Assembly: GCF_963921235.1 (NCBI RefSeq)
Contig: NC_086108.1
Coordinates: forward strand, 53,508,001-53,572,000
Reading direction: 5' to 3'
Origin: Mobula hypostoma
Lineage: Eukaryota
DNA length: 64,000 nucleotides
Positions 11,609 to 42,721 of the stretch are shown piece after piece. The notes beneath the pieces were generated by a model. That model was given only the letters and a program-made list of their open reading frames with translations, searched no databases and had not been told where the DNA came from. The position numbers and the translations under genes are program-made. Numbering within the stretch: position 1 is the stretch's first letter; the number at the start of each line of letters is the position of its first letter.

Positions 11609-14600
11609 TCTTTCTTTCTTTCTTTTCTTTCTTTTTTAATTAATCATAGAGATAAAAGAAATAAAAAGAAAAAAATACAAAGAAAACCCCCCTAAAAGAA
11701 ACAAAAAGAGAACTAAATACTAAACCCAAAAAAGCAAACGGAACAAAACAAGGTGAGACCATTATCTTAAATCGAACACGTTCAATAATGTCGTCAACTC
11801 TGCTCCTCTATTCATATATTTTAAGTTAGTAAGAAGGATTCAGAAAGGTCAAATTACATCATATGAAAATGTTGAATAAATGGTTTCCAAGTCTCTTCAA
11901 ATTTAACCGAAGGATCAAAAATATCACTTCTAATTTTTTCTAAATTTAAACATAATATAGTTTGGGAAAACCGTTGGAATGTAGTAGGAGGATTGGTCTC
12001 CTTCCAGTTCAATAAAATGGATCTTCTGGCCATTAAAGTAAAAAATACAATCATCTGACAGGCTGAAGAAGATAAAAATCTATGTTTGACCATTGGCAAT
12101 CCAAAAATTTCCATAATAGGATGGGGTTGTAAATCAAAACACAGAACTGTTAAGATAATATCAAAAATATCTTTCCAATATTTTTCCAAAAGAGGACAGG
12201 ACCAACACATATGAATTAAAGAAGCCACCTCAGAGTGACATCTGTCACAAATAGGGTGTATATGGGAATAAAAATGGGCTAATTTATCTTTAGACATATG
12301 GGCTCTATGCACTACTTTAAATTGTATTAATGTATGCTTAGCACATATAGAGGAAGTACTGACTAATTGAAAAATTTTGTCCCATTTCTCTATAGGTAGG
12401 CAAAGTTGAAGTTCCCTTTCCCATTCATTTTTAATTTTATCAGATATATCTGGCTGTAATTTCATAATTATATCATAGATAAATGCTATTAATCCCTTCT
12501 GAAGAGGATTTAAACCTCAAATTTTATTGATGATATCAGTAGGGTATGAGGTCGGAAAGGTAGGCAACATGGTATTTTAAAAATTTCTTATTTGTAAATA
12601 TCTAAAAAAATGGGATCAAGGCAAATCAAATTTCTTAGATAACTGTTCAAAAGACATGAAACAGTTATCCAGATATAAGTCACGAAAACATGTTATATCT
12701 TTTGTTTTCTATATCAAAAAACCTTGGTCCATAACCGAGGGTTGAAAAAAAAGTTAGATATAATAGGGCTTCTAATATAAATTAGTTCAAACCAAAAAAT
12801 TTACGAAATTGAAACCATATTCGTAATGTATGTTTAACTATTGGATTAACCGTTTGTTTATTCAATTTAGATAGTACAAAAGGAAGTGAAGTTCCGAAAA
12901 TGGAAGCCAAAGAGAACCTTTGCACAGAGTGACCTTCAAGGTTTACCCAATGTGGATTTGGAATTATATTCCAATCTTGTGTCCAAAATATTAAATATCG
13001 AATATTAATTGCCCAATAATAGAATCTTAGATTAGGCAGTGCTAAACCACCATCTTTCTTGGACTTTTGTAAATTTTTTTTACTTAATCTGGGATTTTTG
13101 TTCTGCCATATATAACAGGAAATTTTAGAATCAATATTATCAAAAAAGGATTTAGGAATAAAAATTGGTATCGTTTCAAATAAATACAAGAATTTAGATA
13201 AAATAATCATTTTAATAGCATTAATTCAGCCAATCAGTGATAGAGACAATGGGGACCACTTAGTAATCAGTTGTTTAACCTGACTAATTAACGGTAAAAG
13301 GTTGAACTTGAATAAATCCTTATGTCTCTTAGTAATTGTAACTCCCAAATAAGTAAAATAGTCAGTAATCACTCTGAATGGAGAACATCTATAAATGGGA
13401 ACCTGCATATTTAATGGAAATAGTTCGCTCTTACCCAGATTCAATTTATAACCAGAAAAACTACTACGCTGAGTAAGCAGAGTTAATACTGCTGGAATAG
13501 ATTTCCCCAGCTTAGAAATATATAATAGTAAATCATCTGCATATAGTGATAGTTTATATGTCTCATTTCCACGGGTAATGCCAAATATATTAGGGGAGTC
13601 ACGAATAGCAATAGCTAACGGTTCCAAGACAATATCGAATAGTAGTGGACTAAGAGGACAGCCCTGCCTTGTATCACGGAATAGATGAAAAAGGGGAGAT
13701 CTTTGATTATTAGTAAATACCGAAGCCAAAGGAGTAAGATACATCAATTTAATCCAAGATATAAATATCGGTTTTAAATTAAATTTCTCAAGGGTATTAA
13801 ATAAGTATGTCCATTCAACTCTGTCAAAGGCTTTCTCAGCGTCCAATGAAATGACACATTCTGGAATTCTGGGTGAAGGAGTATAAACAATATTCATTAA
13901 TCTCCTAATATTAAAAAAAGAGTAACGATTTTAAATCAATCCAGTCTGATCAGCAGAAATAATTTGAGGTAATACATTCTCCAATCTCATTGCCAATATT
14001 TTAGAAAAAATCTTAGAATCCACATTCAACAAAGATATAGGCCTATAAGATGCACATTCAGTAGGATCCTTATCTTTTTTAAGAATTAGGGAAATAGAAG
14101 CTCGATAAAAAGATTGTGGTAATTTACCTGTAGATACTGCATCCCTAAAAATTCTACATAGCCAAGGAGTCAGTGCAGTAGAGAAAAATTTTTTAAAATT
14201 CTACTGTATATCCGTCTGGGCCAGGTGCTTTACCTGAGTTCATTGAAAGAATAGCATTTTTTATTTCCTCTACCGTAATAGGTATGTCTAGTTTTAAACA
14301 TTCATTAGATGATAATTTTGGAATATTCAATTTCTTTAAAAATTCATGCATTATAGTGGAGTCATCAGGAAATTCTGGCTGATATAAGGAGGTATAAAAT
14401 TCTTGAAAGGATTTATTTATCTCGTCATGGTCAACCATCAAAGTGCCATCTTGTTTACGAATCTTAACAATCTGTCGCTTAACTGAGGCCGATTTCAATT
14501 GATTAGCCAATAGTTTCCCAGTTTTATCACCATGTATACAGAATTGTCTCTTAGTTTTGGTTAATTGACTTTCAATTGAAGATGATAGTAATAGAGTATG

Positions 14601-15345
14601 TTCCATTTGAAGTTCAACTCTCTGTTTGTAAAGCTGATTAGGGGCTATAGAATATTTCTTGACAATTTCTTTAATCTTGTCAACCAGTTTAAGTATTTCA
14701 TTATTAGCTCACTTTTTTAATCCAGCAGTATTTGAAATAATTTGTCCACGAATATATGCTTTAAAAGTATCCCATAGTGTCTCACTTGTAGAATTCGTTG
14801 TCAAGAAAAAATTAATCTGTTCCTAAATAAACTTGACAAAATCTGAATCTTGAAGCAAAGTGGTATTAAATCGCCATTGTCTAGAATGAGAAGATGTATC
14901 CTTTGACTTATTAGATAGTTTCAACAGCGCATGATCAGAAACAGCAATGGAATCATATTTGCAACCAGTAAGAAGTGGAACTAATCGAGAATCGATAAGA
15001 AAATAATCAATTCTTGAATAGTGATGATATACATGTGAAAAAAATGAGAACTCTTTCTCATTTTGATGCAAGAATCTCCAAATTTCTGAGATTCCAGAGT
15101 CAGTCATAAAAGAGTTAATAAGAGTAACTGATTTATTGGGAAGTACTTGATTGGACATTGATCTATCCATCAAAGGATTTAAACAACAGTTGAAATCTCC
15201 ACCCATAATCAACATATAATCATTTAAATTAGGAAGAGATGTAAAGAGATTCTATAAAAAATCGGGACACTCGACGTTTGGGGCATAAACATTAAGCATA
15301 ACAACTTTTTTGCTAAATAACAAATCAGTAATTTTAAAAAATCTT
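11609..15345 (-). mobile_element. L1 LINE, 5'-truncated within the endonuclease, AT-rich, frameshifted
   Basis: APE GGDFN, YSRIDYF, SDH (14823-15215); KAPGPDG; RT LDAEKAFD, RQGCPLSP, YADD (13226-13897); C-terminal CDRC..HMCWSC; A-rich (aaag)n tail; 11-bp TSD caatttctttt at 11598-11608 and 15346-15356. Confidence 0.95.
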
Positions 15346-18300
15346 CAATTTCTTTTCTTCAGTATTCACGAAGGAGAAAGATATTGAATTGTGTAAGATA
15401 AGGGAAACAGGTAGGGAAGTTATGGAAACTATGATGATTAAAGAAGATGAAGTACTGGCGCTTTTAAGGAATATAAAAGTGGATAAGTCTCTGGGTCCTG
15501 ACAGAATATTCCCTATGACCTTGAGGGAAGTTAGTGTGGAAATAGCAGGGGCTCTGACAGAAATATTTCAAATGTCATTAGAAACAGGGATGGTGCCAGA
15601 GGATTTGCGTATTGCTCATGTTGTTCCATTGTTTAAAAAGGGTTCCAAGATTAAACCTAGCAATTATCGGCCTGTGAGTTTGACGTCAGTGGTGGGTAAA
15701 TTGATGGAAAGTACTCTTAGAGATGGTATATATAATTATCTGGATAGACAGGGTCTGATTAGGAACAGTCAACATGGTTTGTGTGTGGAAGGTCATGTTT
15801 GACAAATCTTATTCAATTTTTTGAAGAGGTTACTAGGAAAGTTGACGAGGGTAAAGCAGTGGATGTTGTCTGTATGGACTTCAGTAAGGACTTTGACAAG
15901 GTTCCACACGGAAGGTTAGTTAGGAAGGTTCAATCATTAGGTATTAATATTGAAGTAGTAAAATGGATTCAGCAGTGGCTGGATAGGAGGCACCAGAGAG
16001 TAGTGGTGGTTATCTGTTTGTCAGATTGGAGGCCGGTGACTAGTGGTGTGCCTCAGGGGTCTGTACTGGGTCCAGTGTTGTTTGTCATATACATTAATGA
16101 TCTGGATGATGGGGTGGTAAATTGGATGAGTAAGTATGCAGATGATACTAGATAGGTGGAGTTGTGGATAATGAGGTAGGTTTTCAAAGCTTGCAGAGAG
16201 ATTTAGGCCAGTTAGAAGAGTGGGCTGAAAGATGACAGATGGAGTTTAATGCTGAAAAATGTGAGGTGCTACATTTTGGGAGGACTAATCAAAATAGGAC
16301 ATACATGGAAAATGGTAGGACATTGAAGAATGCAGTAGAACAGAGGGATCTAGGAATAATGGGGCATAATTTCCTGAAGGTGGAATCTCATGTGGATAGG
16401 GTGGTGAAGAAAGCTTTTGGTATGCTGGCCTTTATAAATCAGAGCATTGAGTACAGGAGTTGGGATGTAATGTTGAAATTGTACAAGGCACTGGTGAGGC
16501 CAAATTTGGAGTATTGTGTACAGTTTTGGTCACTGAATTATAGGAAAGATGTCAACAAAACAGAGAGAGTACAGAGAAGATTTACTAGAATGTTACCTGG
16601 GTTTCATCACCTAAGTTACAGAGAAAGGTTGAACAAGTTGGGTCTTTATTCTTTGGAGCGTAGAAGGTTGAGGGGGGACTTGATAGAAGTATTTAAAATT
16701 ATGAGGGAGATAGATACAGTTGATGTGGATAGGCTTTTTCCATTGAAAGTGGGGGAGATCCAAACAAGAGGACATGAGTGGAGACTTAAAGGGCAAAAGT
16801 TTAGAGGTAACATGAGGGGGAACTTCTTTACTCAGAGAGTGGTAGCTGTGTGGAACGAGATTCCAGCAGAAGTGGTTGAGTCAGGTTCGATGTTGTCATT
16901 TAAAGTTAAATTGGACAGCTATATGGACAGGAAAGGAATGGAGGGTTATGGGCTGAGTGCAGGTCAGTGGGACTAGGTGAGAGTAAGAGTTCGATACAGA
17001 CTAGAAGGGCCAAGATGGCCTGTTTCCGTGCTGTAATTGTTATATGGTTATATGGTACAAAAATAGGTGAGGGGGTAGGTAGTGCTGAGGAAACAATGTG
17101 ATTGTAGCAGAACTTGGACAAATTGGAAGAATAGGCAAAAAAGTGGCAGATGGAATACAGTGCTGGGAAATACATGATGCATTTTGGTAAAAAGAACAAT
17201 AGTGCAGACTATTATCTAAATGGGGAGAAAATTCAAACATCAGAGGTGCGGGACTTAGGAGTCCTCATGCAGGACTCCCAGAAGGTTATTTCACAGGTTG
17301 AGTCTGTGGTAAGGAAGACAATACATCCTCTGAGATATGGGCCTCAAAACTGTTGACAATACTCTAAGTGCGGCCTGACTGGTGTCCTATAAAGGCTAAG
17401 AATTATCTCCTTGCTTTTATATTCTATTCCCCTTGAAATAAATGCCAACCTTACCACTTGACACCAAGTATGGAGTTAAATACTATCACGATTAAATAAT
17501 TAGCGGACACGTGCATTTTCACAAGCGTAATTGCCGTATCTAATGCACTGCCGAATCTGAGATTGTGACAGGGCTCCCCTCTCTAGGCTCAGCCCGAGGT
17601 GCCACAGACCTGTGTCCGCTGGAAGTCCCAGATCAGTAACTTGTCCAAGATATCCTTCGCCGGGATCCAAGTACGTTCTTCTGGGCCAAACCCTTCCCAG
17701 ACCACAAGGTACTGAACCTTACCACGTACCCGGCGAGATGCCTGGAGGCGCTGCACAGTGTAGACAAGGGAACCATCTACCAGGCGGGGAGAGGGGGAGG
17801 TGGGGTGACTGGGGCTAGGGGAGAGGTAGTAACCGGCTTGAGCTGGGAAACATGGAATACTGGGTGGATCTTCAGTGATGCTGGCAGACGCAATCGATAG
17901 GACACCTTGTTGACAGCCTTTTCCACTAAAAACGGTCCCACGTAGCACGGTGCCATTTTCCGGTTCTTGACTTTCAGGGGAACATCCCTTGATGCCAACC
18001 AGTTCTCCACTCCTGGCTTGAATGGCCTTACCTGTCGACGGAGCTAATCAACCTGCCAGGAATGTTGTTTCTGGGCACGCAGCAGAGAAGCCCTGGCTTG
18101 TCTCCAGGTTCGCTTGAGGTGCTGGATCAGTTGCTCAGCAGCAGAAACTCCTACGTCGACCTCCTGATCAGGGAAGAGTGGGGGCTGGACTCCCTTCTGA
18201 CGTTCAAAGGAGACATACCGGTGGAGGACGACTGGAGGTTATTGTGGGCGATCTCTGCCCAAACCAATTGGGAGCTCCAGGACCTGGGATTGGAAGAGGC

Positions 18301-19475
18301 AGGGTTGTCTCCAACTCCTGGTTCACTCTGTCTGGCCTGTATGCTGGGGTGGAAGCCAGAAGAGAGGCTGGCCGGGGGTCCTACAAGAGAGCAGAAAGCC
18401 TTCCGAAAGCGAGAAGTGAACTATGGTCCATGACCAAACACTGTCTTGAGGAAAGCCATGGAACCTGAATACCTGTTGAACCATGACTGTGGCAGTCTTA
18501 CGAGCTGATGGGAGCTTGGGGAGGGCAATGAAGTGGGCTGGGTGCTGAGGGAGGGGGACGAGGGCGAGGAAAGACGGTGATCAGTCGGTGTAGGAAGTTT
18601 GAAACACTCAGTTACCCGGTCGTCAACTCGAATAGCCAGATTAATCAGGTCATCCAGACTATCCTGCTCGTCCCGGACACGATCTCATGCCGGACCCCTG
18701 CGTTCGGTCCACGCTGGAAGGAGGTGATGAGAGATCTCTCATTCCATCCCGTCTCTACTGCAAGTGAGTGGAATTTCACTGCATAGGCTCCCACCGTTCC
18801 TCTGCCTTGGCGCAGGTCCAAGAGTCGGTGGGCAGCCTCCTGACCCTGTACTGGAAGATCAAAAACCCTCCTTAACTCCTCCAGGAAATGTCAGAACATC
18901 TGGGCTGCGGGGTATCTTTGCTCGCGTGAAGCATTGAACAGGCTGAGTGGAGGTCCGTCAAGAAGATTGACCAGATACCCCCATCGGGATCACCAGAATA
19001 TCTGCCTAGTGGTGGAATATTCGGTTCCTGTACGGTCGTGGGAGTCGGCTCTGGTCCGGGAGCGGGAGCAGGAGCATTAGTAGCAGAGATTGTTGGGGCA
19101 GCAGAAGGGGAGGGCCTGCGAGATGCTGTGAGTGGGACTGAGGCGGCCTGAAGCTACTGAATTGAGCTGGCTAGAACGTTAATGTCTGCCTACTGATGCT
19201 GGCTGTTCACAGCAAGTTCGTGGACGGCGGCCGTAAGTGCGGAAATCGCAGACTCCCGAGTCTGGTTGTCTGTGGTGAGCTGTTGAACAGCAGCGGCGAG
19301 GGACGATACCTGTTCCTCCATGTGAGACTGGGTTTGTCGGCATGAGGTTATCTGCCTCATTGCCTCCGCTACTTCACTGAGAACAGATTCCATTGCCTGT
19401 AGCTTGTCTCCTACCTGACCAATGACTCTCATGGCCAAGGTCAGCTGCTCTCTCTCTGCTGTCCATCTTTGTGTG

Positions 19476-19486
19476 GTCGAGACTTG
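19476..19486 (-). promoter_or_regulatory. Self-priming primer-binding site of the chromovirus
   Basis: caagtctcgac (minus strand) lies 1 nt past the LTR end and is the exact complement of LTR positions 21548-21538. Confidence 0.8.
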
Positions 19487-19693
19487 CTGTTACCAGGCTC
19501 GGATATGGCTCAACTGCGGAGTGAGAGACACCGAAGAAGGTCGATAGTTCACAAACTTTATTGCGAATAGTGTTAAAGGGAAAATAAAACTAGGCCAAAT
19601 AGGGCCGTAAACTAAAACTCTCAAATGAGAAATGAAAGCTACACTGCAGCTGAAAAAGAAAATCTAAATATTAAACGAATACCGCTAGTCTTC

Positions 19694-21449
19694 CCCATCA
19701 GGAAGGTCTCAAAGCTCTACGCTTCTTTTTGGATTCCAGACCTAATCAGTTCCCCTCTACCACCACTCTGCTCCGTCTAGCGGAATTAGTCCTTACTCTT
19801 AATAATTTCTCCTTTTGCTCCTCCCATTTCCTCCAAACTAAAGGTGTAGCTATGGGCACCCGTATGGGTCCTAGCTATGCCTGCCTTTTTGTTGGGTTTG
19901 TGGAACAATCTATGTTCCGTGCCTATTCTGGTATCTGTCCCCCACTTTTCCTTCACTACATCGACGACTGCATTGGCGCTGCTTCCTGCACGCATGCAGA
20001 GCTCGTTGACTTTATTAACTTTGCCTCCAACTTTCACCCTGCCCTCAAGTTTACCTGGTCCATTTCCGACACCTCCCTCCCCTTTCTAGATCTTTCTGTC
20101 TCTGTCTCTGGAGACAGCTTATCCACTGATGTCTACTATAAGCCTACTGACTCTCACAGCTATCTGGACTATTCCTCTTCTCACCCTGTCTCTTGCAAAA
20201 ACGCCATCCCCTTCTTGCAATTCCTCCGTCTCCGCCGCATCTGCTCTCAGGATGAGGCTTTTCATTCTAGGACGAGGGAGATGTCTTCATTTTTTAAAGA
20301 AAGGGGCTTCCCTTCCTCCACTACCAACTCTGCTCTTAAACGCATCTCCTCCATTTCACGTACATCTGCTCTCACTCCATCCTCGCACCACCCCAATAGG
20401 AATAGGGTTCCCCTGGTCCTCACCTACCACCCCACCAGCCTCCGGGTCCAACATATTATTCTCCGTAACTTCCGCCACCTCCAACGGGATCCCACCACTA
20501 AGCACATCTTTCCCTCCCCCCTCTCTCTGCATTCCGCAGGGATCGCTCCCTACACAACTCCCTTGTCCATTCGTCCCCCCCATCCCTTCCCACTGATCTC
20601 CCTCCTGGCACTTATCCGTGTAAGCGGAACAAGTGCTACACATGCCCTTACACTTCCTCCCTTACCACCATTCAGGGCCCCAAACAGTCCTTCCAGGTGA
20701 GGCATCACTTCACCTGTGAGTCGACTGGGGTGATATACTGCGTCCGGTGCTCCCGATGTGGCCTTTTATATATTGGTGAGACCCGACGCAGACTGGGAGA
20801 CCGCTTTGCTGAACATCTACGCTCTGTCCGCCAGAGAAAGCAGGATCTCCCAGTGGCCACACATTTTAATTCCACATCCCATTCCCATTCTGATATGTCT
20901 ATCCACGGCCTCCTCTACTGTAAAGATGAAGCCACACTCAGGTTGGAGGAACAACACCTTATATTCCGTCTGGGTAGCCTCCAACCTGATGGCATGAACA
21001 TTGACTTCTCTAACTTCCGCTAGGCCCCACCTCCCCCTCGTACCCCAGCTGTTACTCCTTTTTATGCACACATTCTTTCTCTCACTCTCCTTTTTCTCCC
21101 TCTGTCCCTCTGAATATACCTCTTGCCCATCCTCTGGGTCACCCCCCCCCCGTCTTTCTCCCTAGGCCTCCTGTCCCATGATCCTCTCGTATCCCCTTTT
21201 GCCTATCACCTGTCCAGCTCTCGGCTCTATCCCTCCCCCTCCTGTCTTCTCCTATCATTTTGCATCTCCCCCTCCCCCTCCAGCTTTCAAATCCCTTACT
21301 CACTCTTCCTTCAGTTAGTCCTGACGAAGGGTCTTGGCCTGAAACGTCGACTGTGCCTCTTCCTATAGATGCTGCTTGGCCTGCTGCGTTCACCAGCAAC
21401 TTTGATGTATGTTGCTTGAATTTCCAGCATCTGCAGAATTCCTGTTGTT
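19694..21449 (+). mobile_element. Penelope-like element (Neptune type), 5'-truncated, inserted in chromovirus 5' LTR
   Basis: RT GVAMGT..YIDD (19729-20700); CKRNKCYTC linker; GIY-YIG GVIYCVRCSRCGLLYIGET (20697-21023); TSD tagtcttc at 19686-19693 and 21450-21457. Confidence 0.95.
21312..21353 (+). ncRNA. Minimal type I hammerhead ribozyme motif (PLE)
   Basis: agtc-CTGACGA-agg...cct-GAAA-c-GTC-gact: core boxes, stem I agtc/gact, stem II agg/cct. Confidence 0.8.
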
Positions 21450-21573
21450 TAGTCTTCAAAGTCAGTTGATTCAAAAGTCCAATTTCTCAGGAAAGACCTA
21501 AAGCAAACAGGCAGTAAAGCGTTGCTATGATCTGTCCCAAGTCTCGACAAGCTCTATGATGACAAGTATGGAG

Positions 21574-21580
21574 TTAAATA
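21574..21580 (-). promoter_or_regulatory. TATA-like box (TATTTAA) in chromovirus LTR U3
   Basis: Present in both LTRs; 25 nt upstream of the 11-nt self-primer sequence. Confidence 0.65.
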
Positions 21581-21671
21581 CTATCACAATTAAATAATAA
21601 TTAGCTGACACGTGCAAATTCACATGAGCAATTGCCGTATCTACTGCACTGCCAAATCCGTGGTTGTGAGA

Positions 21672-23795
21672 ACTAGAGGTCACCCGGTTTCATTCCACCT
21701 TTTGTCGCACACCCATGTTGGTGAGGCCTGATACCAGCTTTGAGGCTTAGGGTACAATTCCCTGGACACCACCATGTTATTTTGTGGGCTCCGTACTTCC
21801 GGCCCCTCCGAGGGCAAACCACATTGGTTTACTCTTTCTCGTTTCAGGTTTGGGCATTCTCTCTTAATGTGTCCCTCCTGACTACAGTTATAGTATTTAA
21901 TTACTCCACCTTTAGTTCTCCCTGTTCCTGGCCCTGATCCATTTCCTCTGCCCTTCCTTGCCCCTTGATGGTAGGCCACGGAGGCTCTCAGAGTCGGTCC
22001 CCAACCCTCATTTCTCTAGGCAGGTGCCTGACTTTTAATGGGCATCGCTTTCCCATTAGAGAGTATCTCTTTGTACCTCTTTTCCCCATGCTCTACTCAT
22101 TTTCATCAGTACTCATGCCTTAGTTTGTGTGGGCTCAGAAGGATCAAATATTTCCAATGCTTTTTTTAAGATTCATCGGTACAGAGAGACACCAGTGTCC
22201 TCAACCATCTATTTGAGGCTTCGGGTCCTTAATGGTCCCGCTCTAATGCTGTTTCATAAACCCCTAGGAACACAGTCCATAAACGGGATGCAAATGCAGT
22301 GGGATGTTCACCTCTCCTCTGGGAACATTTCGCTAGCGCGTCTTCCAGGTCCCCTCTGTTCTGCGTTTTTCAGTTCCCCACTTGTTCGCCCACCATGTCA
22401 TTGTATATCTGGCAAAGCTGAGTGTATATTTGGGTGTAAACACATGACAATCAGTGTCCTTTCCTCAGAGTCGTCTAGGCCCTTTATTATTCTCTGATGG
22501 CTGGTTGTTTGGAAAAGCTCTGGAGGATCGTCTCCGAGCAGTCATGTCCCAATATCCTTAGCGATATCCCTAAGCAGCTGCACCCCGAACGGTGTGGTTT
22601 AACCAATTTCCCCCGGGATTAATAAAGTATGACTACTACTATTCTGATGTTGATCTGCTCCCCCTGCTCCCCCTCTCTGATGGTAACAGGGGCGCCCATC
22701 ATGCAGACTGTAGCACCGGCTCCCGTTGGTAGGCTGTCGGTGGGAGTTCCTCGGGAAATGGTGCTTTGTAATTATCGTAACTCTATCTAGTTGCTTCGTC
22801 TGCTAAGTCATGCCAAGCAATGTCTCCATATTCACCTTCCTCCCCTCTCTCAGACCGAAAAGCACACCTCGCTGTTCAGCAAGTTGGCCTTGCAGCTTTT
22901 GAATCTGCTTTAAACACTGCATGATCCCCTTGTTACTATTCCTTTCCTGTGCTGATTTCTGAATCACATTCATAGCCGTCTTTAAATCACTGCACTGTTT
23001 CCTCAATCCTTCCACTTCATTCTTCACTAGTTTGGCTGCTTCCTCTGGTTTACTTTTTACTTTAAGTAATTTCTCACACTTCAGCTGAAACTGTCTGTCT
23101 GTATTTTGTTTTACGGCGGTTGGCATCCAGCTTAATGGTGCATTACCGCCACCAGCTGAAACTGGTTCATATGCATCAAGCCCATTCCTCTCGGACCCTG
23201 TAAATAAGTAGCCCTTTCTCTAAACGATTCTCCCTCCTTTCGGAGCAGTTTGTGTTCTCCTTCTAACCTATCTCGCTCGGCTTCTGCTTTACACCGACAT
23301 TCGTTTGCCGATTCTAATCTGTGCAGCTCCGCCTTGGCGTTTTGTCGTAATTAAATCAAATCTCCAATCGACAAAAACCGAGTGCTACTGGTTTTTGTAA
23401 TTGTTTAAACTTCCTGCTCGACAGCTTCCCGTGGGCGATTTTCCACAGGGCACCAGCAGCCGTTTTCCCCTCACAGTCAGTAGCCAACTAATTCCTCATA
23501 TTGTGACCACTTCCCAGACACGTATTTCTGAAGGTATCCCCTCCAATCAAAACAATCCAAGTCTTTTAGACTTACAGAATTTCCTGAATTCTTCATCCTG
23601 GGTTAGTAACCGCTAACTACCCAGTCCCAGATCTCTCTGTACCTCACCCATGTGGTCCCGCTGAGCAAAGAGATTTGTTCAGCTCACCCAGGGACACCAA
23701 TTCTGTTACAAGAAAATGGCAAATGCATCCAAGATGACTGGAGACAGCTTTCCATTGTGTGGTTATCAACACATGTAGGCATCATTTAGCAGACA
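21672..23795 (-). mobile_element. LTR retroelement 5' portion (LTR end, PBS, degenerate gag); Gypsy vs ERV unresolved
   Basis: LTR end tgtaaca at 23710-23704; PBS tggtgtccctgggtgagc (23699-23682) resembles the complement of the tRNA-Asn 3' end; coiled-coil ORF 22803-23126; zinc knuckle YYNCSQEGHIKRECP (21680-21979). Confidence 0.75.
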
Positions 23796-24460: not shown

Positions 24461-25011
24461 AGACTAACCACTCTGTGCATTCCCTCAATACTTGTCTTCT
24501 GTCTCCCTCTTTCCTTTCCTTCTTCTACTGGTACTATTACTACTGCAATCTCTCAGCAGCTGTGGTTTTGCCAGTGAATGATCGTACACATGCAATGGAA
24601 AGGGTTCCAGGGATTAGGTATGGACTAAAAGGATTGGATTTAGACAGCAATTTTCTGCGGCAGTTTCTACGGAGTCAACCAAAGGTGTTACTGTGTTTTA
24701 TTTTACCATTGAAAGACCTTGCTGGGCATTAACAACAGGTCTACCTCATCAGCGAGTTGCTCTTTGGCACAGAAACTGACTTCATGCTGCCTGCAACAGT
24801 GAGGCGTCAATGCGCAAAAGAGGTGTGCAGTCCAACAGTGGGTGGTTGTCTTAGTTGCTTTTCTTGTGATATCAAGACCCAGTTGGAAATTAGTGGTGTG
24901 GAATGTTTAAGTCCAAACAACAGGAATTCTGCAGATGCTGGAAATTCAAGCAACATACATCAAAGTTGCTGGTGAACGCAGCAGGACAAGCAGCATCTAT
25001 AGGAAGAGGCG

Positions 25012-25053
25012 CAGTCGACGTTTCAGGCCGAGACCCTTCGTCAGGACTAACTG
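25012..25053 (-). ncRNA. Minimal hammerhead ribozyme motif (PLE)
   Basis: Reverse complement cagttagtcCTGACGAagggtctcggcctGAAAcGTCgactg. Confidence 0.8.
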
Positions 25054-25345
25054 AAGGAAGAGTGAGTAAGGGATTTGAAAGCTGGAGGGGGAGGGGGAGA
25101 TCCAAAATGATAGGAGAAGACAGGAGGGGGAGGGATGGAGCCGGGAGCTGGACAGGTGATAGGCAAAAGGGGATACGAGAGGATCATGGGACAGGAGGTC
25201 CAGGAAGAAAGACAAGGGGGCAGGGGTGACCCAGAGGATGGGCAAGAGGTATATTCAGAGGGACAGAGGGAGAAAAAGGAGAGTGAGAGAAAGAATGTGT
25301 GCATAAAAATGAGTAACAGATGGGGTACGAGGGGGAGGTGGGGCC

Positions 25346-27814
25346 TTAGCGGAAGTTAGAGAAGTCAATGTTCATGCCATCAGGTTGGAGGCTACCCAGA
25401 TGGAATATAAGGTGTTGTTCCTCCAACCTGAGTGTGGCTTCATCTTTACAGTAGAGGAGGCCGTGGATAGACATGTCAGAATGGGAATGGGATGTGGAAT
25501 TAAAATGTGTGGCCACTGGGAGATCCTGCTTTCTCTGGCGGACAGAGCGTAGATGTTCAGCAAAGCTGTCTCCCAGTCTGCGTCGGGTCTCACCAATATA
25601 TAAAAGGCCACATCGGGAGCACCGGACGCAGTATATCACCCCAGTCGACTCACAGGTGAAGTGATGCCTCACCTGGAAGGACTGTTTGGGGCCCTGAATG
25701 GTGGTAAGGGAGGAAGTGTAAGGGCATGTGTAGCACTTGTTCCACTTACACGGATAAGTGCCAGGAGGGAGATCAGTGGGGAGGGATGGGGGGGACGAAT
25801 GGACAAGGGAGTTGTGTAGGGAGCGATCCCTGCAGAATGCAGAGAGAGGGGGGGAGGGAAAGATGTGTTTAGTGGTGGGATCCCGTTGGAGGTGGCGGAA
25901 GTTACGGAGAATAATATGTTGGACCCAGAGGCTGGTGGGATGGTAGGTGAGGACCAGGGGAACCCTATTCCTAGTGGGGTGGTGGGACGATGGAGTGAGA
26001 GCAGATGTATGTGAAATGGGGGAGATGCGTTTAAGAGCAGAGTTGGTAGTGGAGGAAGGGAAGCCCCTTTCTTTAAAAAATGAAGACATCTCCCTCGTCC
26101 TAGAATGAAAAGCCTCATCCTGAGAGCAGATGCGGCGGAGACGGAGGAATTGCAAGAAGGGGATGGCGTTTTTGCAAGAGACAGGGTGAGAAGAGGAATA
26201 GTCCAGATAGCTGTGAGAGTCAGTAGGCTTATAGTAGACATCAGTGGATAAGCTGTCTCCAGAGACAGAGACAGAAAGATCTAGAAAGGGGAGGGAGGTG
26301 TCGGAAATGGACCAGGTAAACTTGAGGGCAGGGTGAAAGTTGGAGGCAAAGTTAATAAAGTCAACGAGCTCTGCATGCGTGCAGGAAGCAGCGCCAATGC
26401 AGTCGTCGATGTAGTGAAGGAAAAGTGGGGGACAGATACCAGAATAGGCACGGAACATAGATTGTTCCACAAACCCAACAAAAAGGCAGGCATAGCTAGG
26501 ACCCATACGGGTGCCCATAGCTACACCTTTAGTTTGGAGGAAATGGGAGGAGCAAAAGGAGAAATTATTAAGAGTAAGGACTAATTCCGCTAGACGGAGC
26601 AGAGTGGTGGTAGAGGGGAACTGATTAGGTCTGGAATCCAAAAAGAAGCGTAGAGCTTTGAGACCTTCCTGATGGGGGATGGAAGTATATAAGTACTGGA
26701 CATCCATGGTGAAAATAAAGCGGTGGGGGCCAGGGAACTTAAAATCATCGAAAAGTTTAAGAGCGTGAGAAGTGTCACGAACATAGGTCGGAAGGGATTG
26801 AACAAGGGGGGATAAAACAGTGTCGAGGTATGCAGAAACGAGTTCGGTGGGGCAGGAGCAAGCTGAGACAATAGGTCAGCCAGGACAGGCAGGTTTGTGG
26901 ATCTTGGGTAGGAGGTAGAAACGGGAAGTGCGGGGTGTGGGAACTATAAGGTTGGTAGCAGTGGATGGGAGATCCCCTGAGCGGATAAAGTCGGTGATGG
27001 TGTGGGAGACAATGGCCTGGTGCTCCTTAGTGGGGTCACGATCGAGGGGTAAATAAGAGGAGGTATCCGCGAGTTGTCGCTGTGCCTCGGCAAGGTAGAG
27101 GTCAGTACGCCAGACTACAACAGCACCCCCTTTATCAGCGGGTTTAATAATAATGTTAGGATTAGTGCGGAGGGAGTGGAGAGCAGAGCGTTCCGAAGGA
27201 GTGAGGTTGGAATGGGGACAAGGTGCGGTGAAGTCGAGACGGTTGATGTCCCATCGGCAGTTGGCAATAAAGAGATCCAGAGCAGGCAGAAGACCAGAGC
27301 GGGGTGTCCATGAAGAAGAGGAGGGTTGAAGACGGGAGAAGGGGTCATCGGTGGGGGTGGAAGAGTCCTTGCCGAAGAAGTAGGCTCGGAGACGGAGACG
27401 GCGGAAGAAAAGTTCCGCATCATGGCGAACACGGAACTCGCTGAGGTGTGGGCGAAGGGGGACAAACGTGAGGCCCTTACTGAGGACAGAGCGTTCTGCC
27501 TCCGACAGTTGAAGGTCGGAGGGGATGGTAAAGACCCGGCACGGATGACAGCTGGGATCAGAGGGGGGAGGGGGGAGGCTGGGGGTGTCAGTGGAGAGGG
27601 GAGGGTTGGGGTGAGAGGAAGATGGAGCCTCTGAGGGCCCAGGAGCTGACGGTGGGATCTGAAGGAGATGGGATTGCAGAGTGTTGGTGGGGGAAGGGGA
27701 GATGGGAGTCACAACAGCAGCACATAAAGACCCGGCCTGGAGTTCAAGGCTGGAGTTGCAGTTGGTGGTTGCGCAATCGCCGTGAAGGTGTCCATGGTCG
27801 TTGCTGGAGTCCGG
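25346..27814 (-). pseudogene. PLE RT-GIY-YIG polyprotein, 5'-truncated, single in-frame TGA
   Basis: ORFs 26876-27712 (IKPADKGGAVVV, FYLLPKIHK) and 25346-26707 (MDV..LYT, YIDD, GIY-YIG) share one frame; TGA at 26878-26876 where the copy at 40565-42721 has AGA. Confidence 0.9.
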
Positions 27815-28793: not shown

Positions 28794-28835
28794 CAGTTAG
28801 TCCTGACGAAGGGTCTCGGCCTGAAACGTCGACTG
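28794..28835 (+). ncRNA. Minimal hammerhead ribozyme motif (PLE)
   Basis: cagttagtcCTGACGAagggtctcggcctGAAAcGTCgactg. Confidence 0.8.
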
Positions 28836-35671: not shown

Positions 35672-37665
35672 AAGTTGGAGGCTACCTAGATGGAATATGA
35701 GATGTTGCTTCTCCAATCTGTGACTGGCCTTATTGCAGCAGAAGAGGAGGTGAAGGACATGTCAGAACTTGAATGGGGATAGGGATTAAAATGGTTGGCC
35801 TCCAGGAAATGCCGCTTTTTGTGGATGGAATGGAGGTAGTCAACAAAGCAGTGTCTCAGTTTATGTTGGGTCTCACCAAAATAGAGAAGGCCACCTCGGG
35901 AGCACCAGATACAACCAACAACTCCAACAAATTCACAGGTGAAGTGTTACCTCAATAGCAAGCACTGTTTGGGGCCCTGAATAAGGGATGAGGTGAATGG
36001 GCAGGTTCAGTACTTCTGTGGCTTGCAGGGATAAGTGCCAGGAGGGAGATTAGTGGGGAGTGCAGAATGGAAAAGGGAATCACGGAAGGGGTGATACCTG
36101 CAGAATGCAGTGAGTGAAGAGGTGATAGGTAAAGTCGTGTCTGATGGTAGGGTCTTGTTGAAGATGGTGGAAATTGTGCAGAATGATGTGTAAGATGTGG
36201 AGGCCAATCATTGTTAAGGCAGCAGGAAGATGGGGTGAGCACAGATGCCCAAGAAATGTGGGAGATGTGGGTGAGGGCAGCATCAATGGTGGAAGAAGGG
36301 AAACCCCTTTCTTTGAAGAAGGAGTCTGTCTCCAGAGATGGGAAAGAGAGACTGAGAAAAGGAAAGAAGTGTCAGAAATGGAACAAGTGAATTTAAGGGC
36401 AGGGTGGAAGTTAGAGGCAAAGTTGAAGAAATTGACGAGCTCAGCATGGGTGCATGAAGCAGCATCAAGACAGTCGTCCATGTAGTGCAGAAAGAGTTAG
36501 GGGAGCATTACAAGTGGACAAGGCTTGGAGCATGGACCGTTCCACGGAGGTGATGGAAAGGGCGGGCATAACTGGGACCCATGGCTGCACCTTGAGATTG
36601 GAGAATGAGGGAGAACCCAAAAGAGAAATTGTTGAGGATGAGGACCAGTTCTACCAGAGAGAGGAGGGTGGTGGTGCAGGGGAACTGGTTAGGTCTATTG
36701 TTGAAAAAGAAGCAGAGCACTTTAAGGCCTTCTTGATGTGGGGGGGGGGGTGTAGAAGTGTATAGAGACTGGACTTCCATGGTGAAAATGAGGCAATTAG
36801 GGCTAGGAAATGCAAAGTTTTTTTAAGGAGATCAGGAGCATGTGAAATGTCGCTGATATAGGTGGGAAGGGAGTTGAGGTATGCGGACACAATTTCAGAG
36901 AGCCTGAGCAGGCAAAGACAATGGACCTACGCAGACTATCAGGTTTGTAGATCTTAGGTAGGAGGTAGAAATGAGCAGTGCAAGGTAAGGGATCTGTGTG
37001 GTTAGTGGCAGTAGATTAGAGATCTCCAGAGTTGATGAGGTAGGTAATTGTGCAGGAGATGATGGCTTGATGGTCTCGAGTGGGGTCCTTTTCAAGGAGT
37101 GAGTAAGAGGAGTGTCTGAGAGTTGCCGCCTGCCCTCAGAGGTCAGCCCGCTACATTACAATAGCACCCCCTTTGTCTGAGGGTTTGATAGTGAGGTTGG
37201 GAATGCCGTGCTGAGCACCCAGGACATCTTCAAGGAGCAGTGTCTCAGAAAGGCAGCCTCTAAAATTAAGGACCTCCAGCACCCAGGGCATGCCCTTTTC
37301 TCACTGTTACCATCAGGTAGGAGGTACAGAAGCCTGAAGGCACACACTCAACGATTCAGGAACAGATTCTTCCCCTCTGCCATCCGATTCCTAAATGGAC
37401 ATTGAACCTGTGAACACTACCTCACTTTTTTAATATATATTTTTTGCATGATTTGTAATCTATTCAATATGTATACTGTAATTGATTTACTTATTTATTT
37501 CAGTTATTTTTTCTTCTATATTATGTATTGCATTGAACTGCTGCTGCTAAGTTAACAAATTTCACGACACATGCTGGTGATAATAAAGCTGATTCTGAAT
37601 GGAGGGCAGTGCGTTCAGAGGAGGTCAGGTTCAAAGAGGGCAAAGAGTAGATTGGAGGGATTGGT
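35672..37665 (-). mobile_element. Older diverged PLE (RT + GIY-YIG remnants)
   Basis: MEVQSLYT (36508-36780); MDDCLDAASCTHAELVNF (36080-36481); KPSDKGGAIV near 37160; interrupted at 37206-37598. Confidence 0.85.
37206..37598 (+). mobile_element. Rex1-type LINE 3' end nested in PLE
   Basis: KDLQHPGHALFSLLPSGRRYRSLK (37208-37405); 3' UTR and gattct tail. Confidence 0.85.
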
Positions 37666-40564: not shown

Positions 40565-42721
40565 AATAACAGGAATTTTGCAGATGCTGGAAATTCAAGC
40601 AACACACATAAAAGTTGCTGGTGAACGCAGCAGGCCAGGCAGCATCTCTAGGAAGAGGTGCAGTCGACGTTTCAGGCCGAGACCCTTCGTCAGGACTAAC
40701 TGAAGGAAGAGTGAGTAAGGGATTTGAAAGTTGGAGGGGGAGGGGGAGATCCAAAATGATAGGAGAAGACAGGAGGGGGAGGGATGGAGCCGAGCTGGAC
40801 AGGTGATAGGGAAAGGGGATATGAGAGGATCATGGGACAGGAGGCCCGGGGAGAAAGACAAGGGGGGACAAGGGGTATAGTCAGAGGGACAGAGGGAGAA
40901 AAAGGAGAGAGAGAGAAAGAATGTGTGTATAAAAATAAATAACAGATGGGGTACCAGGGGGAGGTGGGGCATTAGCGGAAGTTAGAGAAGTCAATGTTCA
41001 TGCCATCAAGTTGGAGTCTACCCAGACGGAATATAAGGTGTTGTTCCTCCAACCTGAGTGTGGCTTCATCTTTACAGTAGGGGAGGCCGTGGATAGACAA
41101 GTCAGAATGGGAATGGGATGTGGAATTAAAATATGTGGCCACTGGGAGATCCTGCTTTCTCTGGCGGACAGAGCATAGGTGTTCAGCAAAGCGGTCTCCC
41201 AGTCTGCGTCGGGTCTCGCCAATATATAGAAGGCCACATCGGGAGCACTGGACGCAGTATATCACCCCAGCTGACTCACAGGTGAAGTGTCGCCTCACCT
41301 GGAAGGACTGTCTGGGGCCCTGAATGGTGGTAAGGGAGGAAGTGTAAGGGCACTTATTCCACTTACAAGGATAAGTGCCAGGAGGGAGATCAGTGGGGAG
41401 GGATGGGGGGGACGAAAGGACAAGGGAGTCACGTAGGGAGCAATCCCTGCGGGAAGCGGGAGGGGGGGAGGGAAAGATGTGCTTAGTGGTTGATCCCGTT
41501 GGAGGTGGCGGAAGTTACGGAGAATAATATGTTGGACCCGGAGGCTGGTGGGGTGGCAGGTGAGGACCAGGGGAACGCTATTCCTAGTGGGGTGGCGGGA
41601 GGATGGAGTGAGAGCAGATGTGCGTGAAATGGGGGAGATGCGTTTGAGAGCAGAGTTGATGGTGGAGGAAGGGAAGCCCCTTTCTTTAAAAAAGGAAGAC
41701 ATCTCCCTCGTCCGAGAATGAAAAGTCTCATCCTGAGAGCAGATGTGGCAGAGGCGGAGGAATTGCGAGAAGGGGATGGCAGTTTTGCAAGAGACAGGAT
41801 GAGAAGAGGAATAGTCCAGATAGCTGTGAGAGTCAGTAGGCTTATAGTAGACATCAGTGGATAAGCTGTCTCCAGAGATAGAGACAGAAAGATCTAGAAA
41901 GGGGAGGGAGGTGTCGGAAATGGACCAGGTAAACTTGAGGGCAGGGTGAAAGTTGGAGGCAAAGTTAATAAAGTCAACGAGCTCAGCATGTGTACAGGAA
42001 GCAGCGCCAATGCAGTCATTGATGTAGCGAAGGAAAAGCGGGGGACAGATACCAGAATAGGCACGGAACATAGATTGTTCCACAAAGCCAACAAAGGGGC
42101 AGGTATAGCTAGAACCCATACGGGTGCCCATAGCTACACCTTTAGTTTGGAGGAAGTGGGAGGAGCCAAAGGAGAAATTATTAAGAGTAAGGACTAATTC
42201 CTCTAGATGGAGCAGAGTGGTGGTAGAGGGGAACTGATTAGGTCTGGAATCCAAAAAGAAGTGGAGAGCTTTGAGACCTTCCTGATGGGGGATGGAAGTA
42301 TATAGGGACTGGACATCCATGGTGAAAGTAAAGCGGTGGGAGCCAGGGAACTTAAAATCATCGAGAAGTTTAAGAGCGTGAGAAGTGTCATGAACATAGG
42401 TAGGAAGGGATTGAACAAGGGGGGATAAAACCGCGTCGAGGTATGCAGAAATGAGTTCGGTGGAGCAGGAGCAAGCTGAGACAATAGGTCTGCCAGGACA
42501 GGCAGGTTTGTGGATCTTGGGCAGGAGGTAGAAGCGGGAAGTGCGAGGTGTGGGAACTATAAGGTTGGTAGCAGTGGATGGGGGATCCCCTGAGCGGATA
42601 AAGTCGGTGATGGTGTGGGAGACAATGGCCTGGTGTTCCTTAGTGGGGTCACGATCGAGGGGTAAATAAGAGGAGGTATCCGCAATTTGTCGCTGTACCT
42701 TGGCAAGGTAGAGGTCAGTAC
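40565..42721 (-). mobile_element. PLE (Neptune type), 5'-truncated
   Basis: RT ORF 41295-42320; GIY-YIG ORF 40972-41298; gccat duplicated at 40560-40564 and 42722-42726. Confidence 0.93.
40661..40702 (-). ncRNA. Minimal hammerhead ribozyme motif (PLE)
   Basis: Reverse complement cagttagtcCTGACGAagggtctcggcctGAAAcGTCgactg. Confidence 0.8.

Follow-up and report, generated by a model that had tools for sequence, protein, structure and literature searches.

Reverse transcription of the fission yeast element Tf1 is primed by the first 11 bases of its own mRNA, which are freed through cleavage by RNase H (PMC7175516). Self-priming and a structure of three duplexes are given as common to the Tf1/sushi group (PMC10085805; PMC6317226), with the former adding that Tf1 requires two further duplexes beside the primer duplex, and crediting the “pretzel” structure to Butler et al., 2001. 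Descriptions of self-primers in the Tf1/Sushi group cover yeast and vertebrates (PMC6317226), and self-priming has been implicated from fungi to vertebrates (PMC4600332). The feature is not universal, since a Tcn1 element is reported to have neither kind of primer-binding site (PBS; PMC2864245). Experiments have proven self-priming in fission yeast; where vertebrates are concerned, the papers cited here speak of it as described, proposed or implicated. It is nonetheless already in print for vertebrate Tf1/sushi elements and so is not new for vertebrates. No vertebrate test of self-priming appeared among the titles and opening abstracts that searches of the open-access literature listed.

The LTR element considered here shares with the vertebrate Tf1/sushi group (the GyDB V-clade: sushi-ichi, Amn-ichi, -ni and -san) a chromodomain integrase and a sushi-type gag, LTR ends near TGTYANR and CNTNACA with AATAAA close to the LTR end, and a PBS that is not of the tRNA type and has its complement within the 5' LTR. 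It differs from that group in being a separate family by protein identity, and in that the present copy is decayed and interrupted by a Penelope-like element. With Tf1 and Tf2 of Schizosaccharomyces pombe, Tj1, Tosmo1-3 and Tcry1 it has in common a PBS that directly follows the 5' LTR and is complementary over 11 nt to the predicted 5' end of the RNA, as well as a predicted leader-LTR helix. However, start site, cleavage and priming have been shown by experiment for Tf1, whereas for our element they are predicted from the sequence and, compared with Tf1 and its kin, this copy lacks reverse transcriptase (RT) and RNase H and has flanking helices that are not significant.

Layout of the LTR element and its insert

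The element spans positions 21671 to 17465 on the minus strand of the window, by which we mean the whole 64-kb stretch of DNA analyzed; features below lie on that strand unless stated otherwise. The 5' LTR is in two parts. Its first part (U3 and the start of R; 21450..21671) begins with TCTCACA where the 3' LTR has TGTCACA, and its last part (R/U5; 19488..19685) carries AATAAA at 19562 and ends in GGTAACA. The 3' LTR (17465..17570) consists of U3 only, stopping before the primer 11-mer discussed below, and its stretch 17465-17568 is 86% identical to the start of the 5' LTR over 107 nt. A different repeat follows: 17345-17452, past the 3' LTR, matches two other repeats of the window at 73-75%. 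A polypurine tract, AGAGAGGGGAG (17574..17584), is found 3 nt before the 3' LTR. Because the 3' LTR stops at 17465, before the 11-mer, no second LTR brackets the 3' end of the 5' LTR, and we infer that end on three bases: the fit of the GGTAACA motif, the AATAAA situated 74 nt upstream, and the 3' LTR of a related locus (L002), which ends at TAACA and is followed by unrelated DNA, fixing the end there. The Sushi LTR model of PMC3601003 has the ends TGTYANR and CNTNACA and AATAAA near the LTR 3' end; against it, TGTCACA of the 3' LTR fits at 7/7 letters, the 5' LTR start shows one change, and GGTAACA fits at 6/7.

Downstream of the LTR, the leader and first gag ATG (19466-19464) occupy 19426..19475, a stretch predicted to pair back to U5 around 19530-19503. 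The gag itself, with its capsid region (18648..19466), is broken just after the first ATG and again at several later places; it matches the Retrotrans_gag profile at 18890-18648 (E 2.4e-6), and its sole match among solved structures is PEG10 (7LGA, E 1.7e-4), one of the sushi-ichi-derived mammalian genes. PEG10 and its kin are domesticated genes, in contrast to the window element, which is unselected and broken. What remains of pol is the broken 3' half of the integrase (17592..18580), recognized by profile matches to SH3_Tf2-1 (18043-17780; E 7e-19) and Chromo (E 1.5e-9). Everything from the end of gag through protease, RT and RNase H to the first half of the integrase is missing between 18681 and 18580; on a tblastn map against the relatives P0013, P0018 and P0001, the stretch matching residues 259-1151 of P0013 is absent. 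Many stops and frame changes mark the internal region as a whole.

Chromo, SH3_Tf2-1, Retrotrans_gag, LTRs and the polypurine tract are all features of a Ty3/Gypsy chromodomain element. Among vertebrates, the relatives with a name are from Nothobranchius, Hemibagrus, Leptobrachium and Podarcis, which suggests a vertebrate host, and there are plant and algal matches besides; identity to relatives is 41-73% over parts of the SH3 piece, with the best gag matches at about 50-56%. None of the longer proteins scored against the gag piece, and two scans of viral contigs yielded no relative. With RT missing from this copy, the tree was calculated from 90 columns of SH3, in an alignment built without a Tf1 or sushi-ichi row. 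It placed the window piece in a set of 21 rows (97/92) that holds nine of the ten named vertebrate rows together with the related L002 and L008, and from which plant and algal rows are absent. For the plant Tcn1 chromoviruses and the TAR (Houba, Osr-1) Copia elements, which belong to other hosts and lineages, self-priming has been predicted from the same kind of complement (PMC6317226). On its sequence features, we read the element as a chromovirus LTR retrotransposon of the sushi type (Tf1/sushi group), present here as a decayed copy, and all those features of the group that could be decided are present. The chromovirus identity proposed in an earlier note on this DNA is borne out by the three profile matches and the SH3 placement.

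A 5'-truncated Penelope-like element (19693..21450, plus strand, opposite to the LTR element) separates the two parts of the 5' LTR, and has sister copies at 24906-26677 (98% identity) and 40565-42290 (93%). Its flanks carry GAAGACTA at 21457-21450 and at 19693-19686, a duplication of 6-8 nt that overlaps the insert ends. The frame of the insert itself has no RVT_1 or GIY-YIG match; we call it Penelope-like because the sister copies match both profiles just under the curated cut-offs (RVT_1, 20.9 bits against 29.6; GIY-YIG, 22.5 bits against 22.6). The insertion is much later than the LTR element, given 2% divergence from the sister copy, where the two LTRs differ by 14%. Its length contribution is 1,764 nt, so that the loop between the two 11-mers measures 2,051 nt with the insert and 287 nt without (306, 323 and 578 nt in relatives), in agreement with the 1.76-kb stretching of the loop that had been claimed earlier. 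The stretched loop is without likely consequence, because the copy has no protease, RT or RNase H. In three family contigs the alignment begins at 21667-21669, includes 37-40 differing letters and breaks off at 21450-21453 although the contig itself runs on, as expected of copies without the insert; a joint skipping the insert was not among the 15 joints listed of 3,132.

Sequencing depth of the family falls from 39,000-83,000 to below 75 beyond 21671 in the DNA-type runs X1, X5 and X9, which fixes the 5' end of the element and shows a multicopy family in three organisms. In X1, the region immediately 3' of the primer has about 2% of the depth seen in U3 (730 at 21530 versus 33,403 at 21625), and most family copies may have other letters near the primer or may be too broken up to align there. 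None of the 40 differences listed, of 252, falls in either 11-mer, an observation with no weight as proof. A further run, X20, which is RNA by guess only, covers U3 too and has no bearing on expression or start site.

Placement of two complementary 11-mers

The putative PBS, CAAGTCTCGAC (19476..19486), is set 1 nt past the LTR end, the spacer between TAACA (19492-19488) and the 11-mer being a single G (19487). Read as 19486-19476 it is the exact reverse complement, at 11/11 letters, of GTCGAGACTTG at 21548-21538 in the 5' LTR, and the complement extends no further on either side. This second 11-mer (21538..21548) is the predicted self-primer, with the predicted mRNA 5' end at its first base. 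A predicted TATA-like box, TATTTAA (21574..21580), starts 32 nt before it, leaving a gap of 25 nt; the 3' LTR has such a box too. The perfect complementarity and the 25-nt gap had both been asserted in the earlier note, and each came out unchanged when the letters were compared and recounted. Also upheld is its statement that the site is not of the TGG type, as no TGG follows TAACA before offset 22, in the region of the gag ATG. No tRNA gene was found in the 64-kb window, and a scan for bacterial promoters, not apt for an element of this type, found nothing.

At up to one mismatch the 11-mer has two copies in the window, namely those just given, and two matches were also obtained in 12 of 100 shuffles of the 64 kb, so that mere double occurrence is not rare; the signal is the placement of the pair. 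An exact 11-nt complement has a chance of 1.5e-7 at one place, and of about 4.5e-4 if allowed anywhere in a 420-nt LTR with seven PBS offsets. By direct count over the window, an exact complement lies within the 430 nt before an 11-mer in 16 of 63,559 cases, and within the 2,200 nt before it in 226 of 61,789. The energy of the primer-PBS duplex is -17.1 kcal/mol. That the complement arose by chance, or was produced by the Penelope-like insertion or some other rearrangement, is exceedingly improbable. The copy is old, its LTRs differing by 14%, and short matches come easily, as a lenient, unanchored scan of 14 distant loci (below) shows with complements of 9-12 nt in 13 of them; however, the anchored chance is below 5e-4, the insert ends are 88 and 200 nt away from the 11-mers, both of which are outside the insert, and relatives without any insert show the same PBS-primer layout, which largely refutes a reading based on chance or insertion.

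Conventional priming was considered with respect to the letters directly preceding the PBS. If the LTR ended 8 nt earlier, the 3' end of initiator tRNA-Met could prime at TGGTAACAG (19495-19487), which agrees with the initiator-Met PBS printed in PMC1797187 at 8 of its first 9 letters; the end is not bracketed, the 3' LTR being cut short, and most plant chromoviruses are primed by tRNA-Met (PMC6317226). We regard this as very improbable all the same: over its full length the match is only 9/18, where nearby places give 10/18 and 9/18, the LTR would end in GCC, not CA, and the 3' LTR in the family of L002, where TAACA gives way to unrelated DNA, fixes the end at TAACA. A TGG at the LTR end is found in no relative (it occurs at offset 8 in L001, and L003 and L006 have none), and priming by initiator tRNA-Met leaves the 11-nt complement without explanation.

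Pairing and folding in related families

An alignment of 31 gag proteins with the window piece led to seven loci from metagenome contigs and one from genome contigs. Two of these were left out of the pairing count, L005 as it starts inside gag and L007 as it has no LTR upstream; the six of eight with a readable LTR represent four families, which are L001, L003 with L002 and L004, L006, and L008, where L001 and L006 were placed by gag similarity alone. The window LTR has no DNA similarity to the LTRs of L001-L007. The predicted primer pairs with the PBS at 11/11 positions in L001, L003 and L006 and at 10/11 in L008; L004 repeats the pairing of L003, and in L002 the diverged 5' LTR matches the PBS over 7 nt only, with the full 11 in its 3' LTR. 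The spacer from the LTR end to the PBS is 1 nt in L001, L003, L004 and L008 and 4 nt in L006, and the TATA-like box starts at about -29 to -31 from the primer in L001, L003 and L006 and at about -30 in L008. The constancy of this distance lends indirect support, from sequence comparison, to the 11-mer as the predicted mRNA 5' end.

With the window included, the five families show pairing in 54 of 55 cells and at least two pair types at 9 of 11 positions, figures to be read with the families being few and the primers of L001, L006 and L008 being alike (7-9/11). Position 1 is G-C in all five, every primer starting with G. Non-cognate combinations of primer and PBS score 3-9 (mean 5.2). Covariation, a check suggested in the earlier note, was recovered across related families in the cognate pairs against the non-cognate range, and since different 11-mers pair at the same layout in related families it supports self-priming. 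For vertebrate self-priming the five-family table is a modest addition to the support in print; its fixed rule (a start at G, 11 nt, about 30 nt from a TATA-like box) could predict start sites, and could serve to classify vertebrate Gypsy families that seem to be without a PBS.

The same table bears on a further possibility, in which a tRNA half or some other small RNA of the host anneals to the PBS, so that the 11-mer in the LTR would be an arm of a structure or would copy that primer, and would not mark the start of the mRNA. Priming by half-tRNAs is known from Copia lineages (PMC6317226), and the mRNA start at 21548 is a prediction; yet the five families have five different PBS sequences, in each case with a match in the family's own LTR at one and the same distance from a TATA-like box, and five host primers each copied to that one place would be far less economical. 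Rfam gave no match over 17300-21800. We consider host-RNA priming of this kind improbable, and self-priming the reading to be preferred.

More distant sequences do not bear on the question in either direction. Fourteen contigs of a viral collection (L009-L022) are distant, circularly assembled, stop-ridden Gypsy retrotransposons, and the lenient unanchored test found its 9-12 nt complements in 13 of the 14 at scattered places, with a 10-nt complement after CAATACA in L012, L019 and L021; they are neither support nor a negative control. Two of the closer relatives show peculiarities of their own. The LTRs of L002 (873-1262 and 5500-6057) share U5 and differ in U3 and R, the 5' LTR carrying another 11-mer where the primer is expected, a poor match to the PBS, and this locus is either an assembly chimera or a recombinant of two subfamilies. 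L008 (1-5177) is a near-complete sushi-type chromovirus that fills an entire contig in a metagenome-assembled genome classed as bacterial, likely a case of host contamination of that assembly.

Flanking helices were assessed through constrained folds in which the PBS was held, each compared to 500 dinucleotide shuffles. For the U5-leader helix, shuffles were as good or better in 0/500 cases for L001, L006 and L008 and in 10/500 for L003; for the window copy, the helix was no better than shuffles (275/500), its topology being reproduced under the constraint. Narrower arms gave 3/500 for L001 and L003, 27/500 for L006, 31/500 for L008 and 71/500 for the window copy. The U5 hairpin is weak in four of the five families (-2.1 to -4.6 kcal/mol), with -7.9 kcal/mol in L006. 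When L001, L003 and L006 are folded without constraint, primer and PBS are not paired in the minimum-energy structures; the centroid fold of L006 has its 5' end paired at long range, and the unconstrained U5-leader fold in the window has a z of -1.3. At six listed places in U5 the window copy differs from more than 92% of the family depth, and two of these (19510 and 19514) are in the arm of the U5-leader helix, which fits decay.

The first in-frame gag ATG is situated within the PBS in L003, in the paired U5 stem in L006, 4 nt after the PBS in L001 and L008, and 9 nt after it in the window copy; in the last three, the codons after the ATG fall in the predicted U5-leader helix. The gag frame starts inside the PBS in L003 (469) and inside the LTR in L006 (742-769), so the PBS is also coding sequence. 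Based on this placement of the ATG we tentatively raise the idea, doubtful as it is, that the self-priming fold doubles as a translation switch in vertebrate-type sushi elements: an RNA that had folded back and had its capped 11-mer cut off would be out of translation and committed to copying, with no need of a tRNA.

Predicted priming mechanism and surroundings

The family to which this decayed sushi-type copy belongs probably used the 11 bases at the start of its RNA as the primer of reverse transcription, as judged from the sequence evidence above. We hold with considerable confidence that transcription of the family would have begun at the G at 21548, which stands about 32 nt from where the TATA-like box starts, with its first 11 bases folded onto the PBS and the primer freed by an RNase H cut between bases 11 and 12. 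The RNA 5' end would fold back over a loop of 287 nt, and a U5-leader helix would flank the primer duplex; the cut that separates bases 11 and 12, and extension of the freed 11-mer into U5 by RT, are proposed by analogy to Tf1. At a later time the copy lost most of pol, and the much younger Penelope-like insertion into R/U5 lengthened the loop to 2,051 nt. The self-priming put forward in the earlier note is supported: the PBS is placed as described there, no PBS of the tRNA type is found where the LTR ends, and the 11-mers covary over related families. The window copy is a dead record of the mechanism, and as dead DNA the locus changes nothing about it.

Directly before the LTR element, at 21680-23400 (minus strand), there is another gag, likewise decayed and of a different kind, in which a coiled-coil region and a zf-CCHC knuckle are recognized; given that the two directly adjoin, the LTR element is nested in or beside an older LTR element. 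Stretches related to this other gag recur at 37214, 58142 and 59080. On the opposite side, an AT-rich stretch among CR1-like pieces (14000-15400, minus strand) resembles by eye what we take to be a decayed LINE-1-type ORF2.

Three Penelope-like copies stop matching at the same place (19693, 26677 and 42290); the copy in the LTR is cut there and the other two run on. Hammerhead ribozymes are known in Penelope-like elements, and a putative minimal core of hammerhead-like pattern occurs near the 3' end of each of the four Penelope-like copies, at 21321-21345 (within the stretch over which Rfam gave no match) and 28803-28827 on the plus strand and at 25044-25020 and 40693-40669 on the minus strand, the pattern giving eight matches in the window.
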